Positions 16,772-61,057 are shown, counted from the first letter of the stretch. The stretch: DNA of 64,000 nucleotides from Alphaproteobacteria bacterium (GCA_016776635.1 JADHSZ010000001.1:35064-99063), one strand, 5' to 3'. Notes: generated from the sequence alone by a model not told the origin. Made by a program: numbers and translations.

Positions 16772-18640
<1,869 letters not shown>

Positions 18641-18699
18641 CTACATCAGGAGATCCGGAAAGCGTCGGGATGGTATGGAGGCGAAGCTGCGATGCGCCG

Positions 18700-18830
18700 G
18701 TCTGTTCCATTCCCTACGCCGGTATAAACCGGATCAGGTTCAAAGGGTTATCTCGCGGATGGTCGTTAAAAGGCAGCACCGGCGATATCTCAGCCCCGCG
18801 ATGGGTGGGGCACCCCTAGAAACAGGACCA
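18700..18830 (-). promoter_or_regulatory. TPP (THI-box) riboswitch in the thiC leader
   Basis: The minus-strand sequence reads ..ctaggggtgcccc..ggggctgagata..accctttgaacctgatccggtttataccggcgtagggaa.. These are the conserved GGGGUGCCC, CUGAGA and ACCCUUUGAACCUGAUCCGGUUAAUACCGGCGUAGGGA elements of the THI element, 85-215 nt upstream of thiC. Confidence 0.85.
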
Positions 18831-35368: not shown

Positions 35369-36135
35369 GTCTGGAAATCGGTACAGAAAGTGTCTCCGTG
35401 GTTATTCCCTGCCACAACGAGGCCGAGTCCCTACCCACCCTGTTTGCCCGCGTTTCTGAGATGAGGCGCTCTCTTGATGGTGTCATGCTGGTCCTTGTGG
35501 ATGACGGCTCCAGCGACGGCACGGGGGAGCTTCTGCGGGCGGAGTTCGGGGGCGATCCTGACGTGCGGGTGGTATCCCATGACGTAAGATTGGGATACGG
35601 CGGGGCGCTCAAGGTGGGCCTGGACGCGGCGGACGGTGATATCGTGGTTACCATCGACGCCGACACTAACTACGATATCCGCAATATCAAAAAGCTTCTT
35701 GAGGCCCTCGGCAACGGTGCCGACATGGTCACGGCGTCGCCGTTCATGGATGGCGGGGCCTGGAACTATCCGTTCCGCCGCTTCGTCATGAGCCGAGTCC
35801 TGGTAACCCTCTACCGGATGGCGCTGTGGAACCAGGTTGGGGATATCATGACCTTCACCTGCGGCTTCCGTGCCTATCGCCGCACCATCCTTGCCGCCGT
35901 CAGGCCCGACGCCGACGACTTTTTGGCCAACGCCGAAATTCTGGTTCGTGCCTTGGTCTTGGGGCTGACCGTGGCCCAGGCTCCGGCCACCGTATTTGAC
36001 CGCGAGCACGGCCGTTCCAAGCTCAAGACCGTGCCTATCATCCTGCGCCATCTGGGATTTCTGTGGAAGCTGCTCCTCCGCCGGGTTGAGGCGCGACCGG
36101 TGGAGCATCCCGAAGGACAGAGGAAGGAGGCGTGA
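35365..36135 (+). CDS. GT2 glycosyltransferase, polyprenol-phosphate sugar transferase-like (DPM1/ArnC-like, soluble type)
   Basis: VSVVIPCHNEAESLPTLF..LVDDGSSDGT..TIDADTNYD (DxD), 256 aa. Its start is 4 bp overlapped with wecB. Confidence 0.75.
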   Translation: MSLEIGTESVSVVIPCHNEAESLPTLFARVSEMRRSLDGVMLVLVDDGSSDGTGELLRAEFGGDPDVRVVSHDVRLGYGGALKVGLDAADGDIVVTIDADTNYDIRNIKKLLEALGNGADMVTASPFMDGGAWNYPFRRFVMSRVLVTLYRMALWNQVGDIMTFTCGFRAYRRTILAAVRPDADDFLANAEILVRALVLGLTVAQAPATVFDREHGRSKLKTVPIILRHLGFLWKLLLRRVEARPVEHPEGQRKEA

Positions 36136-37334
36136 TTCCCCGGCTATCCGCACCCTTCGATGTGACGGACGCCGGAGCTTTGGTGAGCGGCTGGGTGCGC
36201 CCCGGCGGCGAGGTGGCCTTTGAGGCGGCGGTGGCGGAGATGACCGGAAAGCGTTTTGTTCTGGCCTTCCCCTCCGGACGTAGCGGTTTTCACGCCCTGA
36301 TCAAGGCCATGGGGTGGCAAGACCGGGAGATCGTGCTTCCCGCCTACACCTGCGCGGTGATGGGCAACACGGTGCTGGCATCCGGTAACCGTCCACGCCT
36401 GGTGGACATCGAGGATTCGGACTTCAACATGGGGTTCAGGGCCCTGGCCTCAGCGGTGGGACGGGACACGGCGGCGGTGGTCGCCACCCATATGTACGGC
36501 TTTCCCATGGACCTGGAGGGGCTGGGCAAGGTCCTTGAAGGCCGTCCAGAGGTGGTGGTGATCCAGGACTGCGCCCTTGCCCTGGGGGCGCGTTATCAGG
36601 GACGTCCAGTATGGAGAGATGGGCTGGCGGTAATGTTCTCTTTCAGCCTGGGCAAGCACTTATCAACGGTGGAGGGTGGGGTGATGGCCACCGACGATGA
36701 GGGCCTCTACGCCGCCATGAAGGATTATCGGGATGGCACCCATCATCCGGCGGGGATCGTGCGAGCCGCTCGCCAATCGGCCTTCTTTATGGCCGGATGG
36801 CTGGGACTCAGGCCCTGGCTTTACAGTCTGGTCCATGGACTGACAACACGCACCGGGGCACTCGGTTTTCTGTCCAAGCACTACGAGCCGAACCGGGTCT
36901 ATCTGCCGCCCAATTTCCGCGAGAGGCTGCCCAACTGCCTCGGTCACTTGGGGGCTAATCAGGTGGGCAAGGCCTCCGGTTTGGTGTCGCGGCGCATCGA
37001 AATATCAGAGGCCTATCGGCGTGAACTGGCCGGGGTTCCCGGATTGAGTTGGCCGTCTCCCCGCGACGGGGCCAGTTTTTCCCACTGTCCATGCCTGATC
37101 GAAGACCGCGACGGCTTCATTGCCTTCATGACCGGACAGGGCATCCACGTGGGCAAGGAAGTGTTCGACTACGCTTTACCCGATATCCCCCTGTTTGCGC
37201 CCTTCGCGGATGGGGATTGCCTCGAGGCAAAAAAAGTGGCGCGTTGGGTGGCCCTGTTGCCTAACCATCCCGGTCTGAGCGACAATGATGTGGAGCAGGT
37301 GATCGCGGCGACCAAACGATGGGGCGTCCTATGA
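36132..37334 (+). CDS. DegT/DnrJ/EryC1/StrS-family PLP-dependent sugar aminotransferase (ArnB-like)
   Basis: Aspartate-aminotransferase fold with the catalytic lysine in FSFSLGKHLSTVEGG. It is overlapped and co-oriented with the GT2 upstream. Confidence 0.85.
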   Translation: MIPRLSAPFDVTDAGALVSGWVRPGGEVAFEAAVAEMTGKRFVLAFPSGRSGFHALIKAMGWQDREIVLPAYTCAVMGNTVLASGNRPRLVDIEDSDFNMGFRALASAVGRDTAAVVATHMYGFPMDLEGLGKVLEGRPEVVVIQDCALALGARYQGRPVWRDGLAVMFSFSLGKHLSTVEGGVMATDDEGLYAAMKDYRDGTHHPAGIVRAARQSAFFMAGWLGLRPWLYSLVHGLTTRTGALGFLSKHYEPNRVYLPPNFRERLPNCLGHLGANQVGKASGLVSRRIEISEAYRRELAGVPGLSWPSPRDGASFSHCPCLIEDRDGFIAFMTGQGIHVGKEVFDYALPDIPLFAPFADGDCLEAKKVARWVALLPNHPGLSDNDVEQVIAATKRWGVL

Positions 37335-41396: not shown

Positions 41397-42002
41397 TTGA
41401 TTGAGTTTCGTGATTTAGCGCCTTGTCACCTCAACAAGCTCGTCGAGGCCCACCTCACTACCTGGAGCGGGAACGACCTGTCGGTCCGCTTGGGGGAAGG
41501 TTTTGTCAGGAGGTTCTACGAACTGGCCATTGAGGATACCACCTCCTTTGCCGTGGGAGCCGGGACATCGGAGAATGAGGAATTGAGTTGCTGGTGTCTC
41601 GGCTTCACCTGCTATGAAGATTTCAATTCCCGACTAAAAAAGTCCCTGGGACTTGGGTTCTATTTTCTAGTCCTCGGTCGGATGCTGACCGGACGTTTGC
41701 CTCTGGGCCAGATCGCTGACCAGTTCCTGCGTCCCAAGCCCTATCGCAAGGCCCAATGCCCGGACGCTCATCTCGGCGCCTTCGGATGTTTCGAGGAGGG
41801 TATGGAGGCAGTCCTGACGTTGTCCTCCCTGATTGGCCATGTGGCAGAGAGACTGGGCGAATCTCACCCGGCATGCTGGTCGGTCACCGCCAAGGACAAT
41901 CGAGGCGCCGACATGGTTATGAAACGGGCCGGTTTCAAGGTTATCGACGCAATACGTCTGAGCGGCAGTGAAACGGTGATATATGAATATACCAGCCGAT
42001 AA
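41397..42002 (+). CDS. Putative GNAT-like N-acyltransferase (hypothetical)
   Basis: 201 aa. The C-terminal ..MVMKRAGFKVID resembles GNAT motif B. It sits at the end of the carrier-protein module. Weak assignment. Confidence 0.4.
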   Translation: MIEFRDLAPCHLNKLVEAHLTTWSGNDLSVRLGEGFVRRFYELAIEDTTSFAVGAGTSENEELSCWCLGFTCYEDFNSRLKKSLGLGFYFLVLGRMLTGRLPLGQIADQFLRPKPYRKAQCPDAHLGAFGCFEEGMEAVLTLSSLIGHVAERLGESHPACWSVTAKDNRGADMVMKRAGFKVIDAIRLSGSETVIYEYTSR

Positions 42003-43002: not shown

Positions 43003-43893
43003 TTAGTCCGTGTAGGCGATGGGGCCGACGGCTCCGTCCCATTGGCCATACTTGACTTCCTTGATCGGCAGATCCTCCGCCTTCAGCTGCTCGGCGTAAT
43101 GGTCGCAGCGTATCCCTTTGTAGCCGTTGTCCGCCATGTGGGTGAACAGGTCACGCAGGTGATCGCGAAAGTGGACATAATCATATTCGGTGTGCAACAG
43201 CAGGCATAAAAAATCGTCACAAGCTTCGATTTGGCTGATCAGGTCATCGAGGCTTTTTTTGTGGTTACCCCGATTGCGCACAACAATGGAGAACACCGAC
43301 TCAATGTTAACCGGCACCTGGATGGTGGAGGAGACTCTATCACCAACCCTGACCTGGCACGGTTCAGGGCCTCCCACGTCTGATGCATAGAGGAATTCCA
43401 TGGGATCCTGCACATCGGCAAAAACCTGATTGTAGCGCCGCCCCGGAGAGCCGGTGCCGGCTGGGTCGTGGCCAAGGATGTCCCGGTAGGCCTCACAGGC
43501 CATATCGATCTGTTTTCGGTAGTCGACGGCGCTCATGGAATAGGCATTGTCGGAAATGGTGGCGTGATCGTAGCCGTGCAGGGCGATCTCATGGCCATGT
43601 TCCTCGATCATCCGTAGCACCTCGGGATGCCCGGCACCGATATCGCCTGTTTTGTCCACGTCCTTGTCGAACCAAGTGTAGGTCTTCCAGGGCTTCATAT
43701 AGAAACTCTGCTTCCAGAACGAGGGTCGCCAGATGCGCCAAAGCGCAGCCTTGAGCACATTGTTCTGTCCCAGGGGGATGAAGAAGGAGGCCTGGAAGTT
43801 ATGTTTCCCCAACTCCTTGAGATAAAACGGGATGGCGTTGCGGATTCCCTCCACCGAGTCCACGTCGATCCGGATAATAACGGACTTTGTCAC
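43003..43893 (-). CDS. CE4 polysaccharide deacetylase-family protein (ArnD-sized, 296 aa)
   Basis: CE4 motif 1 RIDVDS and motif 2 HGHEIALHGYDHA. Confidence 0.65.
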   Translation of the reverse strand: MTKSVIIRIDVDSVEGIRNAIPFYLKELGKHNFQASFFIPLGQNNVLKAALWRIWRPSFWKQSFYMKPWKTYTWFDKDVDKTGDIGAGHPEVLRMIEEHGHEIALHGYDHATISDNAYSMSAVDYRKQIDMACEAYRDILGHDPAGTGSPGRRYNQVFADVQDPMEFLYASDVGGPEPCQVRVGDRVSSTIQVPVNIESVFSIVVRNRGNHKKSLDDLISQIEACDDFLCLLLHTEYDYVHFRDHLRDLFTHMADNGYKGIRCDHYAEQLKAEDLPIKEVKYGQWDGAVGPIAYTD

Positions 43894-45533
43894 GGAGCAG
43901 CTTTTGTCACTTGATGGCTCGCAACGAGTTCGCCGGTTTCCTCACTGCCTTTTTCCGCCTTGGCGGTTGGGATTTTGACCGTCTTGAGAGGTGGTTCACT
44001 CTCGCGGATTCGCACTCCACCGTCGAACAGGATGCGTCTGAACCATAGCAAGTAGGTTCCCATCACGTGCTGGGACACAGGATCCGAGTTGCGAAAGGTG
44101 AGGAACAGATCGATGAAGAACATGGTTATGGTTTTGGGCATGAAGGCTAACAGCCTGACCAGATTCTTCTCGAGGATGAAGAAGCGGGCCTTTTTAGGCA
44201 GGGCTGGCATGATGCGGTAGAAAATGGCGTAGGCCCGGAACAGTCTCTTGAGCTTGATGTCGGTGGTGATGCCGTAGTCATAATAAAAGTTGGAGTGGCC
44301 TTGGTTGATCTTGTCCTCATCCTCGGGCTTGATCATCCCCCACTCGATGGCCTTCTTGACCATTGGGGTCTTGGGATAGCAGGTAAGGAAAAAAGTATTG
44401 ACCTTGTGCACCTGCTCGCACTTTGAATATTCCCAGGCGGCATTATAGAGATTTTCTTCATTGTTCTCGTCGGGCAACCCGAAGATATGGTCACAGGAGT
44501 ATTTAACCCCGTACTTGTCCAGGGAATCAAAACAGGCGCGAATCTGTTCGTTGGTCTCGGGACGGTACAGGTGCTTCTTGCGGTTTTCCTCGTTCATGGA
44601 CTGGATGCCGAGCTGCAGGCGGTAGCAACCACTTTCGCTGAGCAGCCGCGCCACCTCGTCATTCATGGGTAGCGGGTGTCCCATGCAGATGTAGGGGATG
44701 TTGATTTTCTCTTTGTACTTCTCGGCGAATTCGCGGAACCAAGCGTGGTTGGAATAGAAAACGTTATCCTCAAAGTCGATCAGGCGGATGTCGTAACGCC
44801 TCTTGGCCTCAAGCAACTCGTCGATGACTAGGTCGGGGGAGCGCCGGCGTGGGTCGCGGCTGCCGTTGAACTCTTCGTAGAATGCCTGGGAACAGAAGCT
44901 ACACGAGATGATGCAGCCCTTGGACGCATGGATGTAGTAGCGATTGCCGACATGAATATCGTCCTCGAACAGGGCCATGTCGTCGGGCTGTAGCTCGTTC
45001 AGGTCCTGTAGTGGGCGCACCGGGTTACGCACCAGCCCAGACTCCTGGCCGTCATCGGTCTTGAAAATAAGGTTGCCGATGGAGGTGTCGATTTTACCCC
45101 GGTCCAGGGAGTCGGCTAACTCGACCATGGGTTGCTCGCCCTCGCCCATGCATACGATGTCGACCCAGGGGGTGCCAAGCGGCGTCTCGGGGCAGTTGGT
45201 AGGAAAGACTCCACCAAAGATTACGGGGGTGTCGATGCGTTTTTTAACACCCTCAGCGATGGCGATGGCCCACTGATAGGTATCGGAGATAACACTGATA
45301 GCCACTATGTCGGGTTCCAGAGCGACGATTTTGTTAATCGCTTTCTTGCGCTGCGAAAACATCTTGGCAAGTACGTTGAAGGGGAAGCTACTGCCCGAGA
45401 AATAAAGGTGCTCGTCGAACAGAGAAGGATCGAAGACCAGAGCGGTCTCATGGCCGGCATGCTTGAGGGTTGCCGAGATGCTCCCGGTACCCATGTTCAT
45501 TTCGCCCATTGTCACGAATACGATTTTAGCCAA
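43890..45533 (-). CDS. Cobalamin(B12)-binding radical SAM protein (class B rSAM) #2
   Basis: N-terminal B12-binding domain (MAKIVFVTMGE..) and CX3CX2C in SKGCIISCSFCSQ. Its stop is overlapped by 4 bp with the CE4 gene. Confidence 0.8.
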   Translation of the reverse strand: MAKIVFVTMGEMNMGTGSISATLKHAGHETALVFDPSLFDEHLYFSGSSFPFNVLAKMFSQRKKAINKIVALEPDIVAISVISDTYQWAIAIAEGVKKRIDTPVIFGGVFPTNCPETPLGTPWVDIVCMGEGEQPMVELADSLDRGKIDTSIGNLIFKTDDGQESGLVRNPVRPLQDLNELQPDDMALFEDDIHVGNRYYIHASKGCIISCSFCSQAFYEEFNGSRDPRRRSPDLVIDELLEAKRRYDIRLIDFEDNVFYSNHAWFREFAEKYKEKINIPYICMGHPLPMNDEVARLLSESGCYRLQLGIQSMNEENRKKHLYRPETNEQIRACFDSLDKYGVKYSCDHIFGLPDENNEENLYNAAWEYSKCEQVHKVNTFFLTCYPKTPMVKKAIEWGMIKPEDEDKINQGHSNFYYDYGITTDIKLKRLFRAYAIFYRIMPALPKKARFFILEKNLVRLLAFMPKTITMFFIDLFLTFRNSDPVSQHVMGTYLLWFRRILFDGGVRIRESEPPLKTVKIPTAKAEKGSEETGELVASHQVTKAAP

Positions 45534-47727: not shown

Positions 47728-48333
47728 TTACCCTGTTGTTTTGGTTGAAGCGCATGGAATCACGTATAAACAATTACTTATGTCATTTCTCGCGATCTGA
47801 CGTCCTATCTTCCGGTAAAACAAATTTGGCTTTTGATTAGATTTTAACACCTGTGCAAAACACGATGAGAATCCGCGCCGGTCTATTTCTTTAAGACATT
47901 TAAAAAAAGAAAAAAAACCTGCTTGAGACCCAATCGAAGTATCCGTATCCACCACCCAACTTAAAATTTCCGCCGATATATTGAGTTTCTTTATATCTCT
48001 GGGAATTAAAAAAACATTTTCTAACAGATGGGGAATGTCTCCTGGGTGAAGGAACGCCGACCCAACAATTCTAATCGATTTACGAAAATCCACCACCCTA
48101 CGTATTCGCTCCCGTGCTGCAGTCGAATTCGTGGTTGCCGAAATAAAGCCAGCCAGATTTCCATCTTCTGGGTTTTCATAAACAACGACGAAAAAATCGT
48201 CTTCTTTCCACAAATTTTCATATATTTTCTGTATGTGAATCAGGCCAAGGCGTCCATTAATGGTCCACTTCAATTCCTGGTAATGCAATTTGGAAATTGC
48301 AGGAATATCGTCAATATTTCCTAGGCGGACCAT
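47728..48333 (-). CDS. GNAT-family N-acetyltransferase-like protein (low-GC gene)
   Basis: 201 aa with a weak GNAT pattern (..VVVYENPEDGNLAGF.. and ..RRGFSSCF..). GC is near 40% against a backbone of about 65%. Confidence 0.45.
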   Translation of the reverse strand: MVRLGNIDDIPAISKLHYQELKWTINGRLGLIHIQKIYENLWKEDDFFVVVYENPEDGNLAGFISATTNSTAARERIRRVVDFRKSIRIVGSAFLHPGDIPHLLENVFLIPRDIKKLNISAEILSWVVDTDTSIGSQAGFFSFFKCLKEIDRRGFSSCFAQVLKSNQKPNLFYRKIGRQIARNDISNCLYVIPCASTKTTG

Positions 48334-48438: not shown

Positions 48439-50289
48439 ATGATGTCCGCTGACGAGAGAATTGCGAGGGTTATTGTCCACGCCGATGACCTTGGGTTGTC
48501 GCTGGGATTTAACGCGGGAATTTTACGGGCCGCAACTCAGGGAATTATGACCAGCACATGCCTTCGCGTGAATGGTTGCGCATATCGCGAGGCCATCGAT
48601 GATGTGTTGCCCCGTATTCCTCACATTGGGGTCGGACTTCATTTAAATATTGTTGAAGGATTTACGCGACGGCAATTGCACGGGCGGGAGACAGTGCTTT
48701 GTGATGCCGATGGGCGTTTCAAACTCACCTTTGTCCAACTCTACCTTGCCCGGAAAAACCCAGCGCTGCTGAAGGAAATCGAAGATGATTACCGTAATCA
48801 AATCGAAATTGCTTTGGCCGACATGGAAAGCCTCGACCATCTAAATTCCCACCAACATTCACATGTCATCCCGCAAATCTTCGAGATATGTTGTCGTCTT
48901 GCAAAAGAGTACGGCATACCATTTGTCCGCCTGCCCGCCGAGCGGTTTTACCTGACTGGTGGATTGGCGGAACATTTACGGTCGTGGTTTGCCTTAAACG
49001 TGATCAAACATATGGTCGTAAACGGCTTTGCAAGGACCAACCGGAGGACAGCTCGACGTTACGACGTAGCCACCAACGATACTTTCGTGGGTGTTCTGTA
49101 TACAGGACACATGAATCCGAAGACCGTAATCGAAGGGATTAAGGCGGCGCAACCATGCGGCCCGGTTGTCGAGGTGCTTATTCATCCCGCCACAGCAACG
49201 GGCCTGAAGTCAGAGGAATTTATCGACAGCGAGTTTCGCGATTATATTATTCGCGCGGAGTGCAGGACAGAACTGAGCACCTCGACGGATTCACAGCTGG
49301 GCGTAACTCTGGCCGAGCGCTACAAGCTGACCAACTATCGAGCCCTCGCCCATTCCTCCGGCAATACGGAAAACAACAACCAAACAAAACAAACTGACTT
49401 CGGCACGGCTCAGGTGGGCTCGCCCCCAGACGCCCTTGCCAACAGCCGGAAACCGCTCAGAACTTTCGTAATCATCGATGAGACACCATTTTATCATCCG
49501 GAATATCTGCGTCGCTTGATCGAAGAGTGCGAGGATGCGGAAATCATTGGGGCGGCTATTGTCGTGCTGCCACGGGGCCGTTCTTTACAAGAATATCTCC
49601 TCAAAAACTGGCGGTTGCTTGGATTATCCGAGCTGTTCCAGCTTGCACTCAAGAAAACCGGGCTTCAATTGTTGGGTGTGGCGCCCCGGTTCGTTCGTGG
49701 CCGTTTTGAATCCTCCGTAAGACGGGTGTGTGCATCGCATGGGGTGCCCACGGTTGAGGTGTCGTCCGTGAACGACGACAAGTTTCTCTCGTACATTCGC
49801 GATATCGCGCCCGATATCATTCTATCTTCCAACTCGCTCGTCTTCAGAAAGGAGCTGTTGGGCGTTCCCCGGTTCGGTTGTATCAACCGCCATTCGTCAC
49901 CCCTGCCTGCTTACGGCGGTATTCTTCCCGTGTTCAGGTCGATTCAGCATGGTGAACGTTTCGTGGCCGTTGCCGTACACAGAATGGTGGAGGGCATTGA
50001 CGAGGGGGAAGTGCTTTCACGAAAGTGGCTGCCGGTGTTCCCTGGTGACACGTTGGAGTTTCTTTACCGCAAATGCTTCATTTTGAGTTTCGATGCAACA
50101 GTGGAAGCGATTTGTATGATTCGAAATAACCCGAATTGCTCTGGCATCGGCAACGAAGGAATCAGGGCCAGTTATTTTTCTTTCCCGACGGAAAAAGATT
50201 GGGCGGAATTTCGCCACAACGGCGGTCGATTCATCTCAGCAGAAAAAGATTTGTTGGGATTTCGTCACAACGGCGGCCACTTCTTCTGA
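48439..50289 (+). CDS. Two-domain fusion: N-terminal YdjC/ChbG-family carbohydrate deacetylase, C-terminal formyltransferase (Fmt/ArnA-N-like) domain, with a C-terminal FRHNGG tandem repeat
   Basis: N-terminus RVIVHADDLGLSLGFNAGIL (YdjC signature). C-terminus INRHSSPLPAYGGILP, compare N(I/L)HxSLLPxYRG of formyltransferases. The final 28 aa are AEFRHNGGRFISAEKDLLGFRHNGGHFF. Confidence 0.65.
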   Translation: MMSADERIARVIVHADDLGLSLGFNAGILRAATQGIMTSTCLRVNGCAYREAIDDVLPRIPHIGVGLHLNIVEGFTRRQLHGRETVLCDADGRFKLTFVQLYLARKNPALLKEIEDDYRNQIEIALADMESLDHLNSHQHSHVIPQIFEICCRLAKEYGIPFVRLPAERFYLTGGLAEHLRSWFALNVIKHMVVNGFARTNRRTARRYDVATNDTFVGVLYTGHMNPKTVIEGIKAAQPCGPVVEVLIHPATATGLKSEEFIDSEFRDYIIRAECRTELSTSTDSQLGVTLAERYKLTNYRALAHSSGNTENNNQTKQTDFGTAQVGSPPDALANSRKPLRTFVIIDETPFYHPEYLRRLIEECEDAEIIGAAIVVLPRGRSLQEYLLKNWRLLGLSELFQLALKKTGLQLLGVAPRFVRGRFESSVRRVCASHGVPTVEVSSVNDDKFLSYIRDIAPDIILSSNSLVFRKELLGVPRFGCINRHSSPLPAYGGILPVFRSIQHGERFVAVAVHRMVEGIDEGEVLSRKWLPVFPGDTLEFLYRKCFILSFDATVEAICMIRNNPNCSGIGNEGIRASYFSFPTEKDWAEFRHNGGRFISAEKDLLGFRHNGGHFF

Positions 50290-50478
50290 AGATTCTCCGG
50301 GGACTCGACCGGAACACGGGCCTTACATGGGGATACCTTTGCCTTCGAACTGGCTTCTGACTTTGCCAAAGTTTCTGGTAAGATGGCTCATCTCGTCGAA
50401 GCTTTATAGATAGCTCGGGCATATTAATTCTTTGTTTGCCACGGGATTTTCCAACTTAAAAGATGCAGGGGTTAAAAG

Positions 50479-51420
50479 ATGTCACGGGACGAGATACAGC
50501 TGATCAGCCTTATCTGCCCGGTTTACAACGAAGAAGCAGCGATTCCGATCTTTCTCAAACGCTTGCGCGAGTCTATCAAGCCTTTGAGAGACCGCTATGA
50601 TTTCGAACTAATTTTCACAAATGACGGCTCCACCGACCGCACGATGGAGTTGATCAAGGCAGAATGCGCCCACGACAAGATGGTGCAGCTTGTCACATTT
50701 TCCCGCAATTTCGGTTATCAAGCCTCGGTCTTATCGGGGCTGCAGCACGCTGCTGGCGAGGCAATGATAGTAATCGCTGTGGACTGCGAGGATCCTCCTG
50801 AACTGATCCCACGTTTCATCGAGGGTTGGGAACAAGGCCACGACATCGTTTATGGTCGCCGGGGCCCCCGGCCGGAGCCATGGTTGATCCAGCTCTGCCG
50901 CAAGGTGTTCTATCGGCTTATCCATCGTATCGCAGACAGCGACTTCGTTCCTTATATGGGCGAATTTGCATTGTTCACACGCAGGGTACGCGACGTGGTT
51001 CTCTCTAATAGGTCTACCTTTATGTTCATCCGTTCGGAAATTGCCTTCGCGGGGTTCTCTCGACTGGCGATATCGTATGCGCCACAGCCGCGGGTCGGCG
51101 GGAGAAGCCATTACAACATATGGGGAATGACCAAGTTCGCCATTGGCAATATTCTCACTTCCTCCACATTTCCTCTACGGTTGGCAGCCTATTTGGGAGT
51201 GCCGCTTTTATTTCTCAACTGGCTGGTGCCGGTTATCGGAGTGCTGACTGGTGAAAACCCCTTGCCGGTTTGGCTGATTGCCCTGGATTTGAACTTCCTG
51301 GTCCTGGCGGCAATTTTTGTGGCTGTATATGTGGCGCGCATCTACAAGGACGGCATGGACAAACCTAAGTTCATCATCGACTGGGATAATACCGAGCTAC
51401 ATGCTCGAAATAAGAAATAA
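50479..51420 (+). CDS. GT2 polyprenol-phosphate glycosyltransferase (GtrB/ArnC-like, two C-terminal TM helices)
   Basis: ISLICPVYNEEAAIP..TNDGSTDRT..VDCEDPPE (DxD-like). The C-terminal hydrophobic hairpin matches GtrB/ArnC topology. Confidence 0.75.
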   Translation: MSRDEIQLISLICPVYNEEAAIPIFLKRLRESIKPLRDRYDFELIFTNDGSTDRTMELIKAECAHDKMVQLVTFSRNFGYQASVLSGLQHAAGEAMIVIAVDCEDPPELIPRFIEGWEQGHDIVYGRRGPRPEPWLIQLCRKVFYRLIHRIADSDFVPYMGEFALFTRRVRDVVLSNRSTFMFIRSEIAFAGFSRLAISYAPQPRVGGRSHYNIWGMTKFAIGNILTSSTFPLRLAAYLGVPLLFLNWLVPVIGVLTGENPLPVWLIALDLNFLVLAAIFVAVYVARIYKDGMDKPKFIIDWDNTELHARNKK

Positions 51421-51445: not shown

Positions 51446-52723
51446 TTGATGGTCAACAAATGCGATAACACTGAGTGTAAGCTGTGCGGCAGCACGGCTT
51501 TAACCCTTGTCATGGACTTTGGAGAGGTTGCACTGGCAGGGGGGTTCTTGAAGCCGGAAGATTTCCCGCAAGAGCAACTCTACCGGCTGCGGCTGTGCTT
51601 TTGCAGAGAGTGTTACCTGTTGCAAATCGTCGATGTCGTGCCGTCTGAAATTTTGTTCAAGAACTATTTCTATTTTTCATCCGCGATTGCGATGTTGCGG
51701 GACCACTTTGCCGATTACGCTACCGAAGTGACCTCCCGATTCCTGACGCCGGAAAATGCAACCGTGGTTGAGATAGGTTGCAACGACGGCGTGCTTCTTA
51801 AGCCGCTTGCTGAAAAAAATATTCAGACTCTTATTGGCATCGATCCGGCCACAAACATCGTCGAGTCTATCGATGACGCGGGAATCAATATTGTTAACGA
51901 TTTCTTCTGTGAAAAAGTCGCGGAAGAAATTCTTCAGGAATACGGTCCAGCACATTTAATTTGTGCGAACAACGTCTGTGCGCACAGCGTTGATTTTAAG
52001 AATATAACTAAAGGAATTTACAAGCTGTTGGACGAAGATGGAGTGTTTGTCTTCGAAGTTCATTATCTTGGAAAACTAATTGAAGAAATACAGTATGATA
52101 TGATTTACCATGAACATATTTATTATTATTCTATTCTTTCTCTGTCGAACCATTTTGACCGGTACGACATGGAAATATTTGACATAAAGCCAATTCCTAT
52201 CCACGCCGGATCAATGCGCTATTACGTACGCAAAAAGGGCCGGCTGCAGACCGAAGAGGTATCCGAGCGCGCCGTAAATCTGTTTGCCGAGGAAAAAGAG
52301 AAGGGCTACGACCGGGAAGAAACCTTCCTTAATTATGCGGCAAGGATATCGGCATCGAAACACCAGTTGATGACTCTTCTCGATCAGTTTACAGGGCAAG
52401 GAAAATCCGTGGCCGGCTATGGTGCTTCCGGTCGGGCCAATACGATTATCCAGTATTGTGGCATCGACCACCGCCACCTTGACTATATAATCGATGATGC
52501 GCCGGCCAAGTGGGGGTATTACACGCCGGGTGAGCATTTCGAGATTCGTTCGCGTCAAGTGTTGGAGGAGCAGGCACCGGACTATCTGTTGATCTTCGCC
52601 TGGAGTTATCTCGACACGGTTACCGAACATTGCCGTGATTTCATGTCCAACGGCGGGAGTATGATCGTGCCTCTGCCAGACGTCAGGGTTATATCTCACC
52701 CGGACGCCAATAGCGCCTTGTAG
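51446..52723 (+). CDS. Sugar C-methyltransferase (zinc-ribbon Methyltransf_13 N-terminus + class I MTase + C-methyltransferase C-terminal domain; TylCIII-like) #1
   Basis: CKLCGS..CRECYLLQ zinc ribbon, motif I VVEIGCNDG, and a C-terminal YGASGRANTIIQYCGI.. region typical of NDP-hexose 3-C-methyltransferases. Confidence 0.7.
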   Translation: MMVNKCDNTECKLCGSTALTLVMDFGEVALAGGFLKPEDFPQEQLYRLRLCFCRECYLLQIVDVVPSEILFKNYFYFSSAIAMLRDHFADYATEVTSRFLTPENATVVEIGCNDGVLLKPLAEKNIQTLIGIDPATNIVESIDDAGINIVNDFFCEKVAEEILQEYGPAHLICANNVCAHSVDFKNITKGIYKLLDEDGVFVFEVHYLGKLIEEIQYDMIYHEHIYYYSILSLSNHFDRYDMEIFDIKPIPIHAGSMRYYVRKKGRLQTEEVSERAVNLFAEEKEKGYDREETFLNYAARISASKHQLMTLLDQFTGQGKSVAGYGASGRANTIIQYCGIDHRHLDYIIDDAPAKWGYYTPGEHFEIRSRQVLEEQAPDYLLIFAWSYLDTVTEHCRDFMSNGGSMIVPLPDVRVISHPDANSAL

Positions 52724-53678: not shown

Positions 53679-55694
53679 TTATGGCGTCTTCAGCGCGCGG
53701 GTTATTGCCCGGCGAAGCAGTTGGAGCACTGTGTACACCGCCGCGCAGGTGGCCATGATAATGAGCGGTTGTACTCCCGGTTCGTACCTTAAGCTCATAC
53801 CATTTGCCAACGACAATCCCGCCACCATTGATAATACCGACAGAGCCATCACCACAAAGAAAATTCTTTGGCGGGAAAAGAACAGAGCCCACCACGACAG
53901 CAAGGCGACCGCACCAACGGCATTTCTAAGAAAATTTCGCACCGTGGTCTGCATATTGTGAAGAATTTTCTCAAATAGTGGCGGGCGGCCAGCAAAATAA
54001 TCCCATTTGTATTCAGCAGGCATATTGGCTGGCAGCAAGCTGGCACATCCGGAACCATTAAACGTTGAGCGAAGGGCATAAGACGGAAATGAAGACAGTG
54101 GACCAAATATTCGGTGGGTTTCGAAAGGTATGGAGCCTGTTAACATCCTCAACGTTACGAGCGAGTCTATTCCAAAATAATTTAAGGCAGTGTGTGCAAA
54201 GACTATAAAGATATCCGGATTCCTGGCGATGGCTTCCATGGCCACGTCCCGCATCAATTTGTCTGCTTGCGAAATTCCTATTTTATTGTCCAACTCTCGC
54301 CACACATGGTCAAAGTATGTCATGTTCGGGCTCTGGAAGAAATTACGCGCTAGGTCTTTAGGGCGCCCATCAAACTGCCCAAATAACAGGTCATAAACGG
54401 TCACCACTTTGTCCGTCCCGGCGTCGTCGAAATGGGCTACTCCCGCCTCGCGGTTCGAGACCTCCATAGATAGAAGGGGCTCAAGTGCGCGATAGGGTTG
54501 TGGGTCTGAATATATCTCCACGAGTAACTCATGGAACCGGCGGCTCGCGGGTCCGTTGTCTGGCTGTATCAGCGATATCTGCGGTTTCTTCTCCTGAGAA
54601 GTTCCTAAAATATTGCGATACGCGAATAGTCGGCCTGTTCGTACGTAATAGGGCTGCAGGAATAATTGCCGCCCACTCCAGTTATTCAGGCCGCCGAACA
54701 GGCTAAGATCATTCAGGTGTACACTGCGTGCACCGGAATAGGTCGCGAACATGCCGAGAACGAGGGCCAGAGAAAAGATGAAATGCAGCCCCTGGCCTTT
54801 TTCTCCCCATAGCAGTTTTTCCCGCCTCATCAGCAGGAGGATGCCACCTCCCAGAATAAAGGGAAGCAACAGCGCCTCGCCTCGCGTCATAGCTGCGAAG
54901 AAGCTGAAGAGTATCGTCAAATAGATGAACTTATGTTGTTTCGTGAAAAAATAACGCGAGAAGAAATATATGCTGCACACCACGAGAAACATGAAGAACT
55001 GTTGGGGAAGCATTGCCTTTACATAAGCGAAGGGAAGCGACGAGACGATTAAAAGCCCGGCTGCTGACAATCCAAGAATCCTGTTGATAGGAGAGAGCGC
55101 GCGATAGGCCATAAGTGGACTTAAAATTCCGATAATGGCGTGGGCAAACACTGTTCCGGCAAAGGTGTTGAAAAAAGTTTGACCTGTCAGGACGAGGAAT
55201 ACGGGGAATCCCGGCCCCCTCTGATATGAATAAGCCCCAGGCTGTCCCGATAAGGACTCTGCATAATTAAAAAACGTCAAAGCGTCGCATTCGAAGACGC
55301 CCCGGAGAGCGACCAGGTGGAAAGCTTGGAATAAAATCGCCGTAGTCAGCAGAATTTTCTGGTCGCGACGGTTGAAAGAATTCGCTGCAGAGGGCGAGGC
55401 GAAATAGGCCTGGAGCCGTTGGGACTTATCAGCCACCCAAGGCCAGCCGTTTATCAGCCGCATGATATTCTTCCGAGCCAGCATCAGCCCGGCCAGTCCT
55501 GAGAAAATGCCCAGAGAGAAGATTTCTGAGCGCGACAAGTCGGCCAGGCGGTAAAAAAGAAACTCCTCTTTCAAGCCAAGCCCAAGATAAGGGGCCGCAA
55601 CGGCGGCGAGAATGGCGCCGCATCCGAAGACAAGAAATAGAAAGGAGAAAACAGGGATAATCCTGTGCGGCCTGGGAAAATAATTCATGATCAA
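53679..55694 (-). CDS. Large polytopic membrane protein, putative GT-C-fold glycosyltransferase (ArnT/PMT/Gtr-like)
   Basis: 671 aa with at least 11 hydrophobic segments and loops. It is surrounded by polyprenol-phosphate GT2 genes. The family assignment is by architecture and context only. Confidence 0.4.
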   Translation of the reverse strand: MIMNYFPRPHRIIPVFSFLFLVFGCGAILAAVAAPYLGLGLKEEFLFYRLADLSRSEIFSLGIFSGLAGLMLARKNIMRLINGWPWVADKSQRLQAYFASPSAANSFNRRDQKILLTTAILFQAFHLVALRGVFECDALTFFNYAESLSGQPGAYSYQRGPGFPVFLVLTGQTFFNTFAGTVFAHAIIGILSPLMAYRALSPINRILGLSAAGLLIVSSLPFAYVKAMLPQQFFMFLVVCSIYFFSRYFFTKQHKFIYLTILFSFFAAMTRGEALLLPFILGGGILLLMRREKLLWGEKGQGLHFIFSLALVLGMFATYSGARSVHLNDLSLFGGLNNWSGRQLFLQPYYVRTGRLFAYRNILGTSQEKKPQISLIQPDNGPASRRFHELLVEIYSDPQPYRALEPLLSMEVSNREAGVAHFDDAGTDKVVTVYDLLFGQFDGRPKDLARNFFQSPNMTYFDHVWRELDNKIGISQADKLMRDVAMEAIARNPDIFIVFAHTALNYFGIDSLVTLRMLTGSIPFETHRIFGPLSSFPSYALRSTFNGSGCASLLPANMPAEYKWDYFAGRPPLFEKILHNMQTTVRNFLRNAVGAVALLSWWALFFSRQRIFFVVMALSVLSMVAGLSLANGMSLRYEPGVQPLIIMATCAAVYTVLQLLRRAITRALKTP

Positions 55695-56767: not shown

Positions 56768-58003
56768 ATGCTCTACCATGACATAAAAGGCTGCCGTGTT
56801 TGTGGTGGCACACACCTTACTGAAGTGTTGAATTTGGGCCGACACACTCTGTCCGGGAGGTTTCCCAAACAGGGCGACCCCGACCCATTGCACGCTCCGT
56901 TGGAACTGGTTCACTGCCACGAATGCGGGCTTCTGCAGCTCAGGCATACCGTCGTACAGAGTGAGCTCTATACCGATCACTACGGCTACCGTTCCGGTAT
57001 TAACGAAGCCATGGTCCGTCACCTTACGGGTATAAAGGACCGCGCTGTAGCCATGGCCAAGCCGAAGGCGGGAGACATAGTCCTGGATATCGGCAGTAAC
57101 GATGGCACTATGCTGAAGACTTATGCGACGCCCGGCTTGGTGCGAATAGGGATAGATCCGATCCTTGGCCATTTTCGGGACCACTATCCCGTTGATGCCA
57201 TTACCGTTGAAAATTATTTCTCCGCCACAACGTTTCAGACAGTGGGAAATGGCCGCAAGGCAAAGGTGATCACATCAATAGCCATGTTCTACGATCTTGA
57301 TGCCCCCAATGCCTTCGTTACGGACATCCGGGAGATTCTGCATCCAGAGGGGATCTGGATTTTTGAGTTGAGTTATATGCCGAAAATGCTCGAGCAAAAT
57401 GCATTTGATACTATCTGTCACGAGCACCTGGAATATTACGGCCTTCATCAGGTCGAGTGTCTGATTTCGGCTCACGGACTGCGCATTTTCGACGTCGATT
57501 TTAATGAAACCAATGGGGGCAGTTTCCAGGTTTGCGTCTGTCACGTTGACGGACCATATCCTTCAGAACAGACGAAGATCGACACTGTGTTGAGAAACGA
57601 AGCAGAGCAGGACTTTAACTCGCTTACACCTTATCATGTCTTCAATAAAGGGATTGAGGCGATTCGTGAGCGCCTGGTTGAGGTCATTCGTGACGAGAAG
57701 GCGAAGGGCAAGAAAATCTACGCCTACGGAGCGTCAACCAAGGGTAACACCATTCTCCAGTATTGTGGCCTCGACAACAAAGATATAGTGGCGGCGGCGG
57801 ACCGAAACCCGGAAAAATGGGGCTGCCGGACGCCGGGAACGGGCATTCCAATCATCTCGGAGGAAGAGGCCCGGAATGCGAATCCAGATTATTTTCTGGT
57901 CCTGCCCTGGCATTTCCGTGAGGGTTTTCTGGAGCGGGAAAAGAATTTTATCCAAAAAGGCGGCCACTTTATTTTTCCACTGCCGAATGTGGAGGTTTAT
58001 TGA
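56768..58003 (+). CDS. Sugar C-methyltransferase (zinc-ribbon + class I MTase + C-MT domain) #2, paralogue of 51446..52723
   Basis: CRVCGG..CHECGLLQ zinc ribbon, motif I IVLDIGSNDG, and a C-terminal YGASTKGNTILQYCGL.. colinear with 51446..52723. Confidence 0.7.
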   Translation: MLYHDIKGCRVCGGTHLTEVLNLGRHTLSGRFPKQGDPDPLHAPLELVHCHECGLLQLRHTVVQSELYTDHYGYRSGINEAMVRHLTGIKDRAVAMAKPKAGDIVLDIGSNDGTMLKTYATPGLVRIGIDPILGHFRDHYPVDAITVENYFSATTFQTVGNGRKAKVITSIAMFYDLDAPNAFVTDIREILHPEGIWIFELSYMPKMLEQNAFDTICHEHLEYYGLHQVECLISAHGLRIFDVDFNETNGGSFQVCVCHVDGPYPSEQTKIDTVLRNEAEQDFNSLTPYHVFNKGIEAIRERLVEVIRDEKAKGKKIYAYGASTKGNTILQYCGLDNKDIVAAADRNPEKWGCRTPGTGIPIISEEEARNANPDYFLVLPWHFREGFLEREKNFIQKGGHFIFPLPNVEVY

Positions 58004-58018
58004 AACGTTGGCTAAGAA

Positions 58019-59143
58019 ATGAAATCCGTAAAGGGTAATTCCATTCCCTGGGCGAAGCCGACCCTGTTTGGCGACGAGGAACGCTATCTGCTTGACGCCC
58101 TGAAATCCACCTGGATTTCAGGGGGGCCGTATGTGGAGCGCCTGGAGCGGATCATTCCTGACCACCTCGGTGTACGTCACGGCATCGCCGTCTCTAACGG
58201 AACATCGGCATTGCAGCTTGGATTGCTGGGCCTCGGTATTGGCCCGGGTGATGAGGTGATCGTTCCTGGATATACCTTTGTCGCCGCCATTAACATGGTT
58301 CTGGCCGTGGGTGCCACGCCCGTCTTCGCCGATATCAATCCAGACAGCTGGGATATTGATGTAAAAGAGGTTGAGCGCGCCATCACCAGAAATACCCGCG
58401 CCGTGATCCCCGTTCATCTGTATGGAAATGTGGCTGATATGCCAGCCCTCATGGAATTGGCGCGGGTCCGTGGTCTGGCCGTTATCGAAGACGCTGCGGA
58501 ATCTGCGTTCTCCCGCCTTGGGGGAAAGTTCACCGGCACCTTCGGGGATATGGGTACTCTGAGCTTTCAGGCAACAAAGACCCTCACCACAGGCGAGGGC
58601 GGAATGGTACTTACGGACGATTCCGACCTCTACCACCGCATGTTGACCATCCGCGACCACGGCATGCCTAAAGACAAAAGATACTGGCATGACGTGGTGG
58701 GCTTCAACTTCAGATTGACCAATTTGCAGGCTGCCCTTGGTTGTGCCCAGTTTGAACAACTTGACTCAATTCTGACTGAGCGGCGACGTGTCTATGAACG
58801 ATATGGCTCGGCTCTGGCCCATATACCGGGAATCGAGATGCAGCATTTTTCGGAAGACCTGGAGCCTGTCGTCTGGACGGTTGCCGTCCGGCTGCGGTCC
58901 GATCACGTCACAATCAGTCGGGATGATGTGATGCAGAGTCTGCTTGAAAAGGGAATCGAGACCCGCCCCGGTTTCTATACCCCAAGCGACATGCCGCTTT
59001 ATGACTGTCCGTTGCTGCCGGTATCTCAGCAGGTAAGTGAAAATATTTTCTGTCTGCCGGCCTATCCAACGCTTAAAGATTCCGAGGTCGATCACGTTTG
59101 CGAAATGCTGAAGCAGATTCTTGAGAGCAGCCATGCGGTTTAA
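58019..59143 (+). CDS. DegT/DnrJ/EryC1/StrS-family PLP-dependent sugar aminotransferase #2
   Basis: PLP-lysine in LSFQATKTLTTGEGG and a conserved N-terminus ..WISGGPYVERLE.. Confidence 0.85.
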   Translation: MKSVKGNSIPWAKPTLFGDEERYLLDALKSTWISGGPYVERLERIIPDHLGVRHGIAVSNGTSALQLGLLGLGIGPGDEVIVPGYTFVAAINMVLAVGATPVFADINPDSWDIDVKEVERAITRNTRAVIPVHLYGNVADMPALMELARVRGLAVIEDAAESAFSRLGGKFTGTFGDMGTLSFQATKTLTTGEGGMVLTDDSDLYHRMLTIRDHGMPKDKRYWHDVVGFNFRLTNLQAALGCAQFEQLDSILTERRRVYERYGSALAHIPGIEMQHFSEDLEPVVWTVAVRLRSDHVTISRDDVMQSLLEKGIETRPGFYTPSDMPLYDCPLLPVSQQVSENIFCLPAYPTLKDSEVDHVCEMLKQILESSHAV

Positions 59144-60016: not shown

Positions 60017-61057
60017 ATGAATAATAGTATTAATACAGCAATTAGAGTAATTAGGTCTCTAATATTTAATGAAAAGCCCAATTACGTAATTGCCTTTATC
60101 GATGGCAGGTGCAACATGCACTGCTCATTCTGTTGTCACGCGGCAAAGGTGGTCAGGGCATCGCCTGAAATGTCCGCGGAACAATGGGGTTATATATTTG
60201 AAGGCTGCAAATCCCTTTTACAACTTACTATCACCGGCGGAGAACCATTTGTAAGAAATGATGTGAAGGAAGTAATAGAATCCATAATAAGATCTTCAGG
60301 CGTCCCAAGAGTAAGCATCAGGACGAATGGATATTATAAAGAACGAACTAAAGAAGCTGTCGTCTATCTGCTGGAAGAATTTCCCCAAACGAACTTTACG
60401 CTCTGTATATCGCTGGACGGTCCTGAAGAAATCCATGATCAGGTAAGGAATTTTGAAGGGGGGTATGCAAAAGCTCTTGAAACCATTGATGAATTGGTGG
60501 AATCAAGAGATACGAATAATAATTTTATTCTAAGGCTGGATTCCGTATTAACGGATGATAACAGGGAATATATGGAAGATTTTCTGGTGGAAACGGAATC
60601 ATGGCCGATTGATTACCATGGAATAATTTTGGTCAGGGATGTTCCGTCAAAGATTCAAGAGGGACTAAAGGGTTTATATTCAAAACTTTCAGATCAGCAA
60701 GCGAATCGTGCATCCAAAAAATGGTCAAATGCGATTGATGGTAAGCTCTTTCGCGCCCTCAGAATCGACACACTGGATAAAATTGGAAACGATGAGGCCA
60801 TAACGCCGTGTCACGCTGGCGGCCGGCTTGTGGAAGTTTTCCCCGATGGCGTTGTCAGGGGGTGCGAGATGGAAAAGCTCTGGGGTATTTCTGAAATCGG
60901 AAACGTGAATTCCGATAAAATAAGACTGATTGATGTTATGAAAAGTCGGGAAGCCGAAGATTTCAGAAAGTTTGCGCAAACCTGCACCTGTACATTTGAA
61001 TGCGCCAATGCGGTTAATGCCGCATATAACATATCAAAGTGGAAAAACTTAATATAA
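60017..61057 (+). CDS. Radical SAM protein with a Cys-rich C-terminal region (possible SPASM/twitch-type auxiliary cluster), low-GC
   Basis: CX3CX2C motif in DGRCNMHCSFCCH. The C-terminus has CHAGG..GCEME..CTCTFEC. GC is about 38%. Confidence 0.7.
   Translation: MNNSINTAIRVIRSLIFNEKPNYVIAFIDGRCNMHCSFCCHAAKVVRASPEMSAEQWGYIFEGCKSLLQLTITGGEPFVRNDVKEVIESIIRSSGVPRVSIRTNGYYKERTKEAVVYLLEEFPQTNFTLCISLDGPEEIHDQVRNFEGGYAKALETIDELVESRDTNNNFILRLDSVLTDDNREYMEDFLVETESWPIDYHGIILVRDVPSKIQEGLKGLYSKLSDQQANRASKKWSNAIDGKLFRALRIDTLDKIGNDEAITPCHAGGRLVEVFPDGVVRGCEMEKLWGISEIGNVNSDKIRLIDVMKSREAEDFRKFAQTCTCTFECANAVNAAYNISKWKNLI

Follow-up and report, generated by a model that had tools for sequence, protein, structure and literature searches.

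A YdjC-type deacetylase fused to a formyltransferase, the joined form of a widespread gene pair, may exchange acetyl for formyl on lipid-linked sugars

In the NaxD and LgmC systems, a deacetylase of the YdjC superfamily works beside a GT2 glycosyltransferase: FlmF2, an ArnC-like GT2, and FlmK, a GT-C transferase, belong to the NaxD system, and in Bordetella LgmA, LgmB and LgmC fill the GT2, GT-C and deacetylase roles, LgmC acting like NaxD. All three genes, lgmA, lgmB and lgmC, are needed for lipid A to be modified with glucosamine (PMC4993483); NaxD deacetylates N-acetylgalactosamine (GalNAc) carried on undecaprenyl phosphate (Und-P), as reviewed in PMC11279074, and HpnK deacetylates a lipid-linked N-acetylglucosamine (GlcNAc), the GlcNAc-hopanoid (PMC12583986). 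The Arn system (PmrHFIJKLM), with the components ArnA, ArnB, ArnC, ArnD, ArnT and ArnE/F, works at the cytoplasmic face on an N-acylated sugar bound to undecaprenyl phosphate, the formyltransferase domain of ArnA being the part that formylates and ArnT the enzyme that transfers (PMC12690121). In this work, we describe a gene in which a YdjC-type deacetylase and a formyltransferase are joined in one polypeptide, found in a stretch of 64,000 nucleotides of an alphaproteobacterial genome (GCA_016776635.1, JADHSZ010000001.1:35064-99063), referred to below as the window. We identify its domains and catalytic residues, show that the gene is intact and that the two-domain module is conserved along with its neighbours, trace the history of a terminal duplication, and propose a function for the gene.

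The fusion and its surroundings resemble the NaxD/LgmC systems in having a YdjC-superfamily deacetylase beside a GT2, a comparison made by family and neighbourhood. Unlike the present module, those systems lack a formyltransferase, and what they place on lipid A is an amino sugar that is free and cationic, whereas a coupled formyltransferase predicts a re-acylated (formamido) end product. With the Arn system the module shares a formyltransferase of the same fold and catalytic triad, an ArnC-type GT2, a deacylase, in several loci a GT-C protein and, in one locus (L018), a small EamA-type protein. The differences are that the formyltransferase is here joined to YdjC, while that of ArnA is joined to a uridine diphosphate (UDP)-glucuronic acid decarboxylase, that the deacylase is in most loci of the YdjC and not of the NodB type, and that an aminotransferase is usually absent nearby.

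The reading frame of the fusion gene is open throughout its 616 codons, and both Pfam domains, YdjC (PF04794) and Formyl_trans_N (PF00551), lie on one chain, each above its curated cut-off. A preliminary description, made from the sequence alone, had predicted this very fusion, and the open reading frame (ORF) and the Pfam search that it had recommended bear the prediction out; its two signature motifs were located, VIVHADDLGLSLGFNAGIL at residues 11-29 and HSSPLPAYGGILP at residues 485-497. The same 616-residue protein was called on contigs of the independent runs ERR13319468 and SRR29139952, an identical protein is present in at least three independent assemblies, and the NCBI entry carries the label 'ChbG/HpnK family deacetylase [Alphaproteobacteria bacterium]'. 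The search for the same fusion elsewhere, also recommended at the time, was run as a word-indexed search of 5.8 billion proteins, the architecture being counted from the precomputed Pfam content of clusters: 61 clusters of homologues, 36-85% identical, contain both domains. The frame is unbroken in independent assemblies as well as in about 60 clusters of homologues, and the possibility that a frameshift or an error hides two separate genes was not borne out. The architecture, which had not been recognised, is indeed functionally uncharacterised, each of its parts coming from a well-known family; it is, however, not unique, since it occurs in several phyla, is already deposited and annotated, and represents the fused form of a widespread gene pair. 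A literature search pairing YdjC with formyltransferase found no paper naming both.

The N-terminal half matches PF04794 at residues 10-287 (E=5.5e-47, 161.3 bits against a cut-off of 29.7), over positions 1-260 of the 266 of the profile. Residue conservation was read from alignments of 21 and 61 members of the fusion family, in which each of D16/D17, H68, H134, H138 and H140 either never varies or is conserved to at least 90%; the HADD, GxH and SHxH motifs of ChbG (7vi8) align with these residues. In Foldseek the modelled domain, predicted with a local distance difference test score (pLDDT) above 90, matches ChbG 7vi8_A with E=1.5e-15 and a target TM-score of 0.84. The best explanation of these data is a metal-dependent N-deacetylase of the ChbG/HpnK/NaxD kind, as predicted activity. 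NCBIfam ranks HpnK first and also lists ChbG, both far below their equivalog cut-offs (for HpnK, TIGR03473, 129.9 bits under a cut-off of 232.6). The hopanoid HpnI-HpnK-HpnJ pathway is similar in this best match and in the fact that its GlcNAc-lipid is made by a GT2; it differs in that HpnK has no formyltransferase coupling, and no hopanoid families were seen among the annotated neighbours in the window, where B12-radical S-adenosylmethionine (SAM) genes are present but generic. Membership of the HpnK family and a hopanoid role were consequently rejected on score and context, and of the link to HpnK suggested earlier only the family resemblance stands.

The C-terminal half matches PF00551 at residues 435-546 (E=2.3e-16; 60.5 bits, the cut-off being 26.1), a match that spans only profile positions 60-169, the N-terminal subdomain being divergent. 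At the level of fold the match covers the whole domain, including its N-terminal Rossmann-like half: Foldseek aligns 245-267 columns with Fmt, the ArnA formyltransferase domain and WbkC, with E=1e-13 to 1e-11 and target TM-scores of 0.56-0.69, those for WbkC being 0.64-0.69. Fmt and the ArnA formyltransferase domain are also among the PDB sequence matches of this half. Across the 61 sequences N483 and H485 never vary, and D521 is conserved to at least 90%; the triad aligns with the INxH (INSH) and GxDxG (GLDTG) motifs of Fmt, and together with the HxSLLPxxxG motif it places the domain in the Formyl_trans_N family. NCBIfam proposes the ArnA formyltransferase domain, a generic formyltransferase and Fmt, all far below equivalog cut-offs (ArnA NF005998, 69.2 bits against 777), and the fusion contains no short-chain dehydrogenase/reductase (SDR) or decarboxylase domain.

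An exhaustive phmmer search of 1.84 billion representatives with this domain gave, at E<=1e-30, 93 clusters; almost all of the best 150 matches run end to end, 16 of them fusions and the remainder stand-alone proteins of 250-290 residues, for which NCBIfam has no specific model. Common hallmarks are a DETPFxHP motif near the N-terminus and an end of the form ...SYFSxPxxxDWxEFRxxGGRFI. The domain is best explained as an N10-formyl-tetrahydrofolate-dependent N-formyltransferase of a distinct subfamily of about 260 residues, again as a predicted activity. It has the fold and the catalytic triad of WbkC, WlaRD, FdtF, VioF and WbtJ; those enzymes, by contrast, act on nucleoside diphosphate (NDP)-3-amino or NDP-4-amino sugars made by aminotransferases, and none of them is coupled to a deacetylase.

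An AlphaFold2 (AF2) model of the whole fusion, built from a 61-sequence alignment, reached a pLDDT of 91 and a predicted TM-score (pTM) of 0.91; such a pTM for a two-domain model implies that the domains are held in a fixed mutual arrangement. Low confidence is confined to the linker (residues 312-333) and the last residues, and the linker, about 30 residues long and read as disordered, differs in length and sequence among homologues. Neither PDB sequence matches nor Foldseek gave a solved chain spanning both domains, and no signal peptide or transmembrane segment was seen in the sequence. The fusion is thus best explained as a genuine bifunctional cytoplasmic enzyme, with both activities predicted. 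An Rfam scan found no match near the gene, and a promoter and terminator scan around it gave counts similar to those of shuffled sequence and is uninformative. Coordinates are collected in Table 1.

Table 1. Location of the fusion gene, its parts and the neighbouring genes relevant to its interpretation (window positions; aa, amino acids)
Feature	Position	Strand	Basis or remark
Complete ORF of the bifunctional protein	48439-50289	+	616 aa; NCBI MBL6933855.1; Pfam, independent assemblies
YdjC/ChbG/HpnK-type N-deacetylase domain (predicted), aa 10-287	48466-49299	+	Pfam; alignment with ChbG 7vi8; Foldseek
Interdomain linker, variable, low-complexity, about aa 306-338	49354-49452	+	AF2 pLDDT <50 at aa 312-322 and 331-333
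Formyltransferase domain (predicted), aa 339-599	49453-50235	+	Pfam; PDB matches; end-to-end alignment with stand-alone relatives
Catalytic Asn483-x-His485 (49885-49893) and Asp521 (49999-50001) of the formyltransferase	49885-50001	+	Alignment; Fmt motifs
Repeat copy 1, conserved C-terminal motif of the family, EKDWAEFRHNGGRFI	50191-50241	+	TCA (Ser) at 50236-50238 in the stop position
Repeat copy 2, low-confidence C-terminal extension, EKDLLGFRHNGGHFF	50242-50292	+	Stop TGA at 50287-50289
GT2 with two C-terminal transmembrane helices, polyprenyl-phosphate glycosyltransferase of GtrB/ArnC/PgfS type	50479-51420	+	PDB; NCBIfam; count of transmembrane helices
Polytopic membrane protein ISR48_00435, 671 aa, possible GT-C	53679-55694	-	PMT_2 E=8.9e-4, below threshold
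ArnD-like NodB-family deacylase	43003-43893	-	NCBIfam ArnD E=1.8e-31, full length, below cut-off; Pfam Polysacc_deac_1
DegT/LegC/ArnB-type sugar aminotransferase	58019-59143	+	Needed only if the pathway is Arn-like

A survey of one genome per species, 185,579 species in all, analysed by BLAST and with a crude ORF caller on which the census of neighbours also rests, yielded 63 loci, in which four arrangements can be distinguished. The fused form is found in Phycisphaerae, Binataceae, Solirubrobacterales, other Actinomycetota and the present alphaproteobacterial metagenome-assembled genome (MAG). In the second arrangement, separate adjacent genes encode a YdjC protein of about 300 residues and a formyltransferase of about 258; at least 18 further genomes, spread over many phyla, have this split pair, always with YdjC first and often with a 4-bp overlap of stop and start. 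Its hosts include Alteromonas sp. KUL42, four Aquimarina, Chitinophaga deserti, Parabacteroides, Gemmatimonadota, Competibacteraceae, Omnitrophica, Lentisphaerae, Levybacteria and Deferribacterales, among others. In the third arrangement, found in Planctomycetota, YdjC is fused to a methyltransferase. The fourth consists of formyltransferase genes without YdjC, four of which lie at contig ends, where the upstream gene is cut off. Two others have a NodB-family deacetylase in its place: in a gammaproteobacterial MAG (L058:9150-12138) a NodB-type gene is coupled by stop and start to the formyltransferase and followed by a PMT_2 GT-C gene, and in a Desulfarculales MAG (L057:6883-8682) a NodB-family polysaccharide deacetylase adjoins a formyltransferase of the same subfamily. 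This is a non-orthologous displacement of the deacylase. Overall, a gene of deacylase fold stands beside the formyltransferase in 34 of 41 formyltransferase loci.

The gene of the window therefore represents, in fused form, a pair of genes, YdjC then formyltransferase, that is conserved and usually coupled in translation, and it marks a conserved two-gene module. In a rough neighbour-joining tree of YdjC domains, most sequences fused to a formyltransferase group together, near the YdjC-methyltransferase clade (mean identity 40%) and apart from most YdjCs of split pairs (30%), a clustering that suggests few fusion events followed by lateral spread. In an Actinomycetes MAG (L021:9983-11715) the fused gene appears as three overlapping ORFs, corresponding to query residues 11-174, 193-304 and 337-599, which points to frameshifts, a pseudogene or sequencing errors.

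The sister fusions to a methyltransferase help to interpret the module. Their partner domain has a motif I, with NPPY 66 residues later, and HemK/PrmC-type matches, the signature of N-directed methyltransferases; this domain should thus work on nitrogen, most simply on the amine that YdjC would expose. The sister fusions, usually located 200-800 bp from a PMT_2/PIG-V/GT87-like GT-C membrane protein, are accordingly predicted to N-methylate a deacetylated lipid-linked hexosamine. Precedents for such logic exist in the pairs of NodB with NodS or NodA and of LpxC with LpxD: the first enzyme deacetylates a substrate derived from GlcNAc, whose amine the second then N-methylates (NodS) or N-acylates (NodA, LpxD). 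Deacetylation followed by re-derivatisation is what we propose for both the YdjC-formyltransferase and the YdjC-N-methyltransferase fusions, although the enzyme families there are others (the folds of NodB and LpxC, the acyltransferases NodA and LpxD), as are the substrates, and none of them uses formyl-tetrahydrofolate. The sister fusions were observed at twelve loci (L014, L016, L017, L020, L024, L025, L029, L036, L037, L041, L042 and L056) and in proteins P0068-P0071. A separate methyltransferase gene found near the pair in 10 loci was considered as a counterpart of the sister-fusion domain and rejected, as the two share only the generic similarity of SAM-binding motifs.

Genes surrounding the module in other genomes point to glycosylation by way of a lipid carrier. 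A GT2 of the GtrB/ArnC/PgfS type with two transmembrane helices is the commonest neighbour, present in 24 of 60 loci at a median distance of 894 bp; within 3 kb, the GT2 family accounts for 11 of 133 genes, with class-I methyltransferases and SDRs coming next. These GT2s score higher against the PgfS than against the ArnC model of NCBIfam. Few aminotransferases are found near the module: they account for 2 of the 133 genes within 3 kb, and 6 of 60 loci have one when the distance is extended to 8 kb. In many loci polytopic membrane proteins are encoded at most about 100 bp from the module; most have no Pfam match, several belong to the GT-C families YfhO, PMT_2 and GT87, and neither BLAST nor phmmer could group them, as they are too divergent and heterogeneous. 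On the basis of gene content, the module thus appears to travel, usually, with lipid-carrier glycosylation systems in which a polyprenyl-phosphate GT2 is combined with a small flippase-like protein and with a glycosyltransferase of the polytopic membrane type.

The clearest case is the operon of Alteromonas sp. KUL42 (L018:6691-16328), in which overlapping genes encode, in order, a GT4, a YfhO protein (GT-C), YdjC, the formyltransferase, an EamA-like protein with four transmembrane segments, a PgfS-like GT2, two methyltransferases, a fatty-acid-desaturase-like protein and a further methyltransferase. Its predicted products amount to a lipid-carrier glycosylation system of three components, to which two cytoplasmic tailoring enzymes have been added. 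GtrA/B/C, CsbB-GtcA-YfhO and PgfS-PgfM1 likewise combine a GT2 synthase, a small flippase and a polytopic GT-C (PMC5836110, PMC8035078, PMC12041528). In such Gtr-type systems, however, the sugar is moved unmodified, whereas the KUL42 operon has the two tailoring enzymes inserted.

In the window, the GT2 gene starts 190 bp downstream of the fusion; in the PDB its product aligns over the full length with GtrB (5ekp, E=9e-46) and ArnC (E=7e-30), and PgfS is its best NCBIfam model; a YdjC-family deacetylase adjoining an ArnC-like polyprenyl-phosphate GT2 is also what characterizes NaxD/LgmC-type neighbourhoods. Both genes sit in a glycan-biosynthesis island of more than 35 kb (28843-64000), which contains GT2 and GT4 glycosyltransferases, a UDP-GlcNAc 2-epimerase, AsnB, two AMP-ligases, the ArnD-like deacylase and two DegT aminotransferases (36132-37334 and 58019-59143); a match to the ArnB family also falls in the island. 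The ArnC-like, ArnD-like and DegT genes are spread over 15 kb and both strands, and the link of the ArnD-like gene to the fusion is uncertain.

From these data we infer the substrate, the order of the reactions, the carrier and the acceptor of a possible pathway. The formyl donor of the formyltransferase is cytoplasmic, and the fusion shows neither signal peptide nor transmembrane segment, so that it should act before flipping, on a sugar linked to a nucleotide or to polyprenyl phosphate. The neighbouring GT2 would make a polyprenyl-phosphate-linked N-acetylhexosamine (HexNAc) from UDP-HexNAc; the YdjC domain would take off the N-acetyl group, just as Und-P-GalNAc is deacetylated by NaxD and the GlcNAc-hopanoid by HpnK; the formyltransferase domain would formylate the freed amine, with a net exchange of acetyl for formyl at the cytoplasmic face; and the lipid-linked formamido sugar would then be flipped, for a polytopic membrane glycosyltransferase to move the sugar to an envelope acceptor. 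This exchange is favoured by the N-directed methyltransferase of the sister fusions, by the scarcity of aminotransferases and by the precedents for the GT2 and YdjC steps. A HexNAc is preferred to a transaminated sugar because the GT2s resemble PgfS, because the characterised YdjC relatives considered (ChbG, HpnK and NaxD) have 2-acetamido sugars as substrates, and because aminotransferases are rare. PgfS is the GT-A enzyme of a pathway transferring GalNAc (PMC12041528), YfhO with CsbB handles GlcNAc (PMC5836110), and 2-formamido hexoses do occur in nature, for instance D-GalNFoA in P. aeruginosa O6 (PMC11706664). We regard the case for a lipid-linked HexNAc being N-deacetylated at the cytoplasmic face and then N-formylated as evenly poised. 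More tentative is the general proposal that the module represents an unrecognised, widespread tailoring step, in which polyprenyl-phosphate-HexNAc would be deacetylated and then N-formylated, or N-methylated in the sister fusions, before flipping.

Some observations weigh against a swap on the lipid carrier. To our knowledge, the characterised sugar N-formyltransferases all use nucleotide-linked amino sugars, and none a lipid-linked one. Formyltransferase, deacylase, ArnC-like GT2 and GT-C also make up the Arn parts list, where ArnD removes the formyl group, and the island itself has an ArnD-like gene and two DegT aminotransferases. ISR48_00435, with a PMT_2 match below threshold, is a possible GT-C candidate only. 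Finally, three loci (L003, L005 and L009) have no glycosylation genes nearby, and in L027 and L050 the formyltransferase has no adjacent deacylase.

The preliminary description had considered an acetyl-to-formyl swap or a transient protection of the amine, and these correspond, as far as sequence comparison can suggest, to the two leading models. Under the second, an NDP-amino sugar made by an aminotransferase would be formylated, the ArnC-like GT2 would transfer it to undecaprenyl phosphate and YdjC would deformylate it, as an analogue of ArnD, giving a lipid-linked cationic amino sugar which GT-C would put on lipid A or another envelope acceptor; YdjC would then be a new class of lipid-linked sugar deformylase. 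The parts found here, including the GT-C-like membrane protein, fit such a scheme, as do the best or near-best match of the formyltransferase to the ArnA domain, the two DegT aminotransferases with the ArnB-family match, the ArnD-like gene of the window and the replacement of YdjC by a member of ArnD's own NodB family in L058 and L057, followed in L058 by the PMT_2 GT-C. Moreover, ArnC takes only the formylated sugar, which ArnD then deformylates (PMC12690121). We nevertheless consider it unlikely: besides the scarcity of aminotransferases around the module, the sister fusions have no formyltransferase, so that their related YdjC cannot be a deformylase; the characterised YdjC enzymes named above are deacetylases; YdjC would be redundant beside the separate ArnD-like gene that the window already has; the GT2s nearby score higher against PgfS, a HexNAc enzyme, than against ArnC; and a tight fusion of opposing activities would risk futile cycling.

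The swap might also take place on the nucleotide sugar, before the GT2 step, converting UDP-HexNAc to UDP-HexN and then to the formylated UDP-HexNFo. In the window the product may feed the ArnC-like GT2 and be deformylated by the ArnD-like enzyme, both encoded there, in an Arn-type route starting from a deacetylase. Such a substrate is the one used by known sugar formyltransferases, and it would suit a soluble fusion without transmembrane segment. NaxD and HpnK, however, act after transfer to the lipid (PMC11279074, PMC12583986), the genes often found beside the module at other loci do not include ArnD-like ones, and a formyl detour to a free amine would have no obvious benefit, as NaxD-type pathways are direct; this route is in our opinion improbable.

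Still less probable is that the C-terminal domain is no sugar-amine transferase at all, but a formyl-tetrahydrofolate hydrolase, a binding or regulatory domain, or an enzyme with another acceptor, the fusion serving co-regulation only. The Pfam match limited to profile positions 60-169, with its divergent N-terminal subdomain, would leave room for this, and the hydrolases PurU and FDH have the same fold. The Asn-His-Asp triad and the HSxLLPxxGG motif are, on the other hand, conserved across the 61 sequences (D521 in at least 90%), the entire 260-residue domain with its C-terminus is conserved in more than 100 clusters, and gene order, stop/start overlaps and the confident packing of the two domains argue for a functional complex with the deacetylase.

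The fusion of the window ends in a tandem repeat, already noticed in the preliminary description, which is real but larger than stated: the 19-mers at 50209-50227 and 50260-50278 are part of an in-frame tandem duplication of 51 nt (17 codons), 80% identical over 46 nt, encoding EKDWAEFRHNGGRFISA and then EKDLLGFRHNGGHFF with its stop codon. The FRHNGG motif is indeed duplicated; it is, however, not new, being the conserved C-terminal motif of the family, whose members all end in ...EDWxEFRxxGGRFI. A second copy exists only in the window protein and in P0002, an 85%-identical relative from a different sample (ERZ23486362). Copy 1 ends with TTC ATC TCA, against TTC TTC TGA in copy 2; since the stop position of copy 1 reads Ser, translation continues for 17 codons to the duplicated stop. 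The duplication predates the split between the two proteins, as each copy is more like its orthologue than like its paralogue. Residues that are invariant in the family have been replaced in copy 2 (W to L in the window protein, R to G in P0002), which AF2 models with low confidence. By these comparisons, the repeat arose in this lineage by a 51-bp tandem duplication of the C-terminus that the family conserves; the added tail is probably neutral, a decaying extension. An artefact, in which a frameshift, chimeric assembly or sequencing error would have merged two genes or produced the repeat, can be practically dismissed: the halves are separate genes in many genomes and the L021 gene is split into three ORFs, but the identical ORF recurs in independent assemblies and at NCBI, some 60 fused homologues have variable linkers, and the duplication is common to P0002, where its copies follow orthology.

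If an exchange of acetyl for formyl does take place on the lipid carrier, the N-acyl group of a sugar would be edited there in many phyla (Planctomycetota, Bacteroidota, Pseudomonadota, Actinomycetota, Gemmatimonadota and candidate-phylum lineages), adding a new layer to envelope modifications of the Gtr, Arn and NaxD type, with consequences for surface charge, antigenicity, and resistance to phages and antimicrobial peptides. The fusion would include the first sugar formyltransferase acting on a lipid-linked substrate and provide the first defined enzymatic route to the 2-formamido hexoses of the envelope; it would explain the origin of such sugars, which the usual sequence of aminotransferase and formyltransferase cannot reach. 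As a Rosetta stone, the fusion ties together two gene families that annotation names separately. The module is directly testable in the cultured strains Alteromonas sp. KUL42, Chitinophaga deserti XJ-2, Aquimarina latercula DSM 2041 and A. mytili KCTC 23302.

Other genes of the window deserve mention. ISR48_00435, whose locus tag belongs to the MAG that carries the fusion, gave only noise in a phmmer search of PDB; one of its homologues carries PF02366, and its AF2 model, from only 15 homologues, has a pLDDT of 54. It has a paralogue beyond the window end, ISR48_00475, the two forming a pair of 670-684 residues, 38% identical and without Pfam family. The 15 sequences of the family have a conserved E-C-D motif at residues 135-137, and homologues form only about 16 clusters among the 5.8 billion proteins.

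Within the island, three B12-binding radical SAM genes (30935-32428, minus strand; 43890-45533, minus strand, co-directional with the ArnD-like gene; 62292-63875, plus strand), a radical SAM/SPASM gene (60017-61057), two TylCIII-type C-methyltransferases (51446-52723 and 56768-58003) and a bifunctional GT2-GT4 (28843-30882) were observed; the content of the island suggests heavily methylated or otherwise unusual sugars. Two ORFs of 201 residues each, at 41397-42002 (plus strand) and 47728-48333 (minus strand), have neither Pfam nor NCBIfam matches and no detectable similarity to each other; the latter is divergent from the fusion gene, 105 bp apart. Farther away, a thiamine pyrophosphate (TPP) riboswitch (Rfam RF00059, 65.9 bits) at 18693-18827 on the minus strand lies just upstream of an ORF of 614 residues on the same strand (16772-18616), presumably a thiamine biosynthesis gene.

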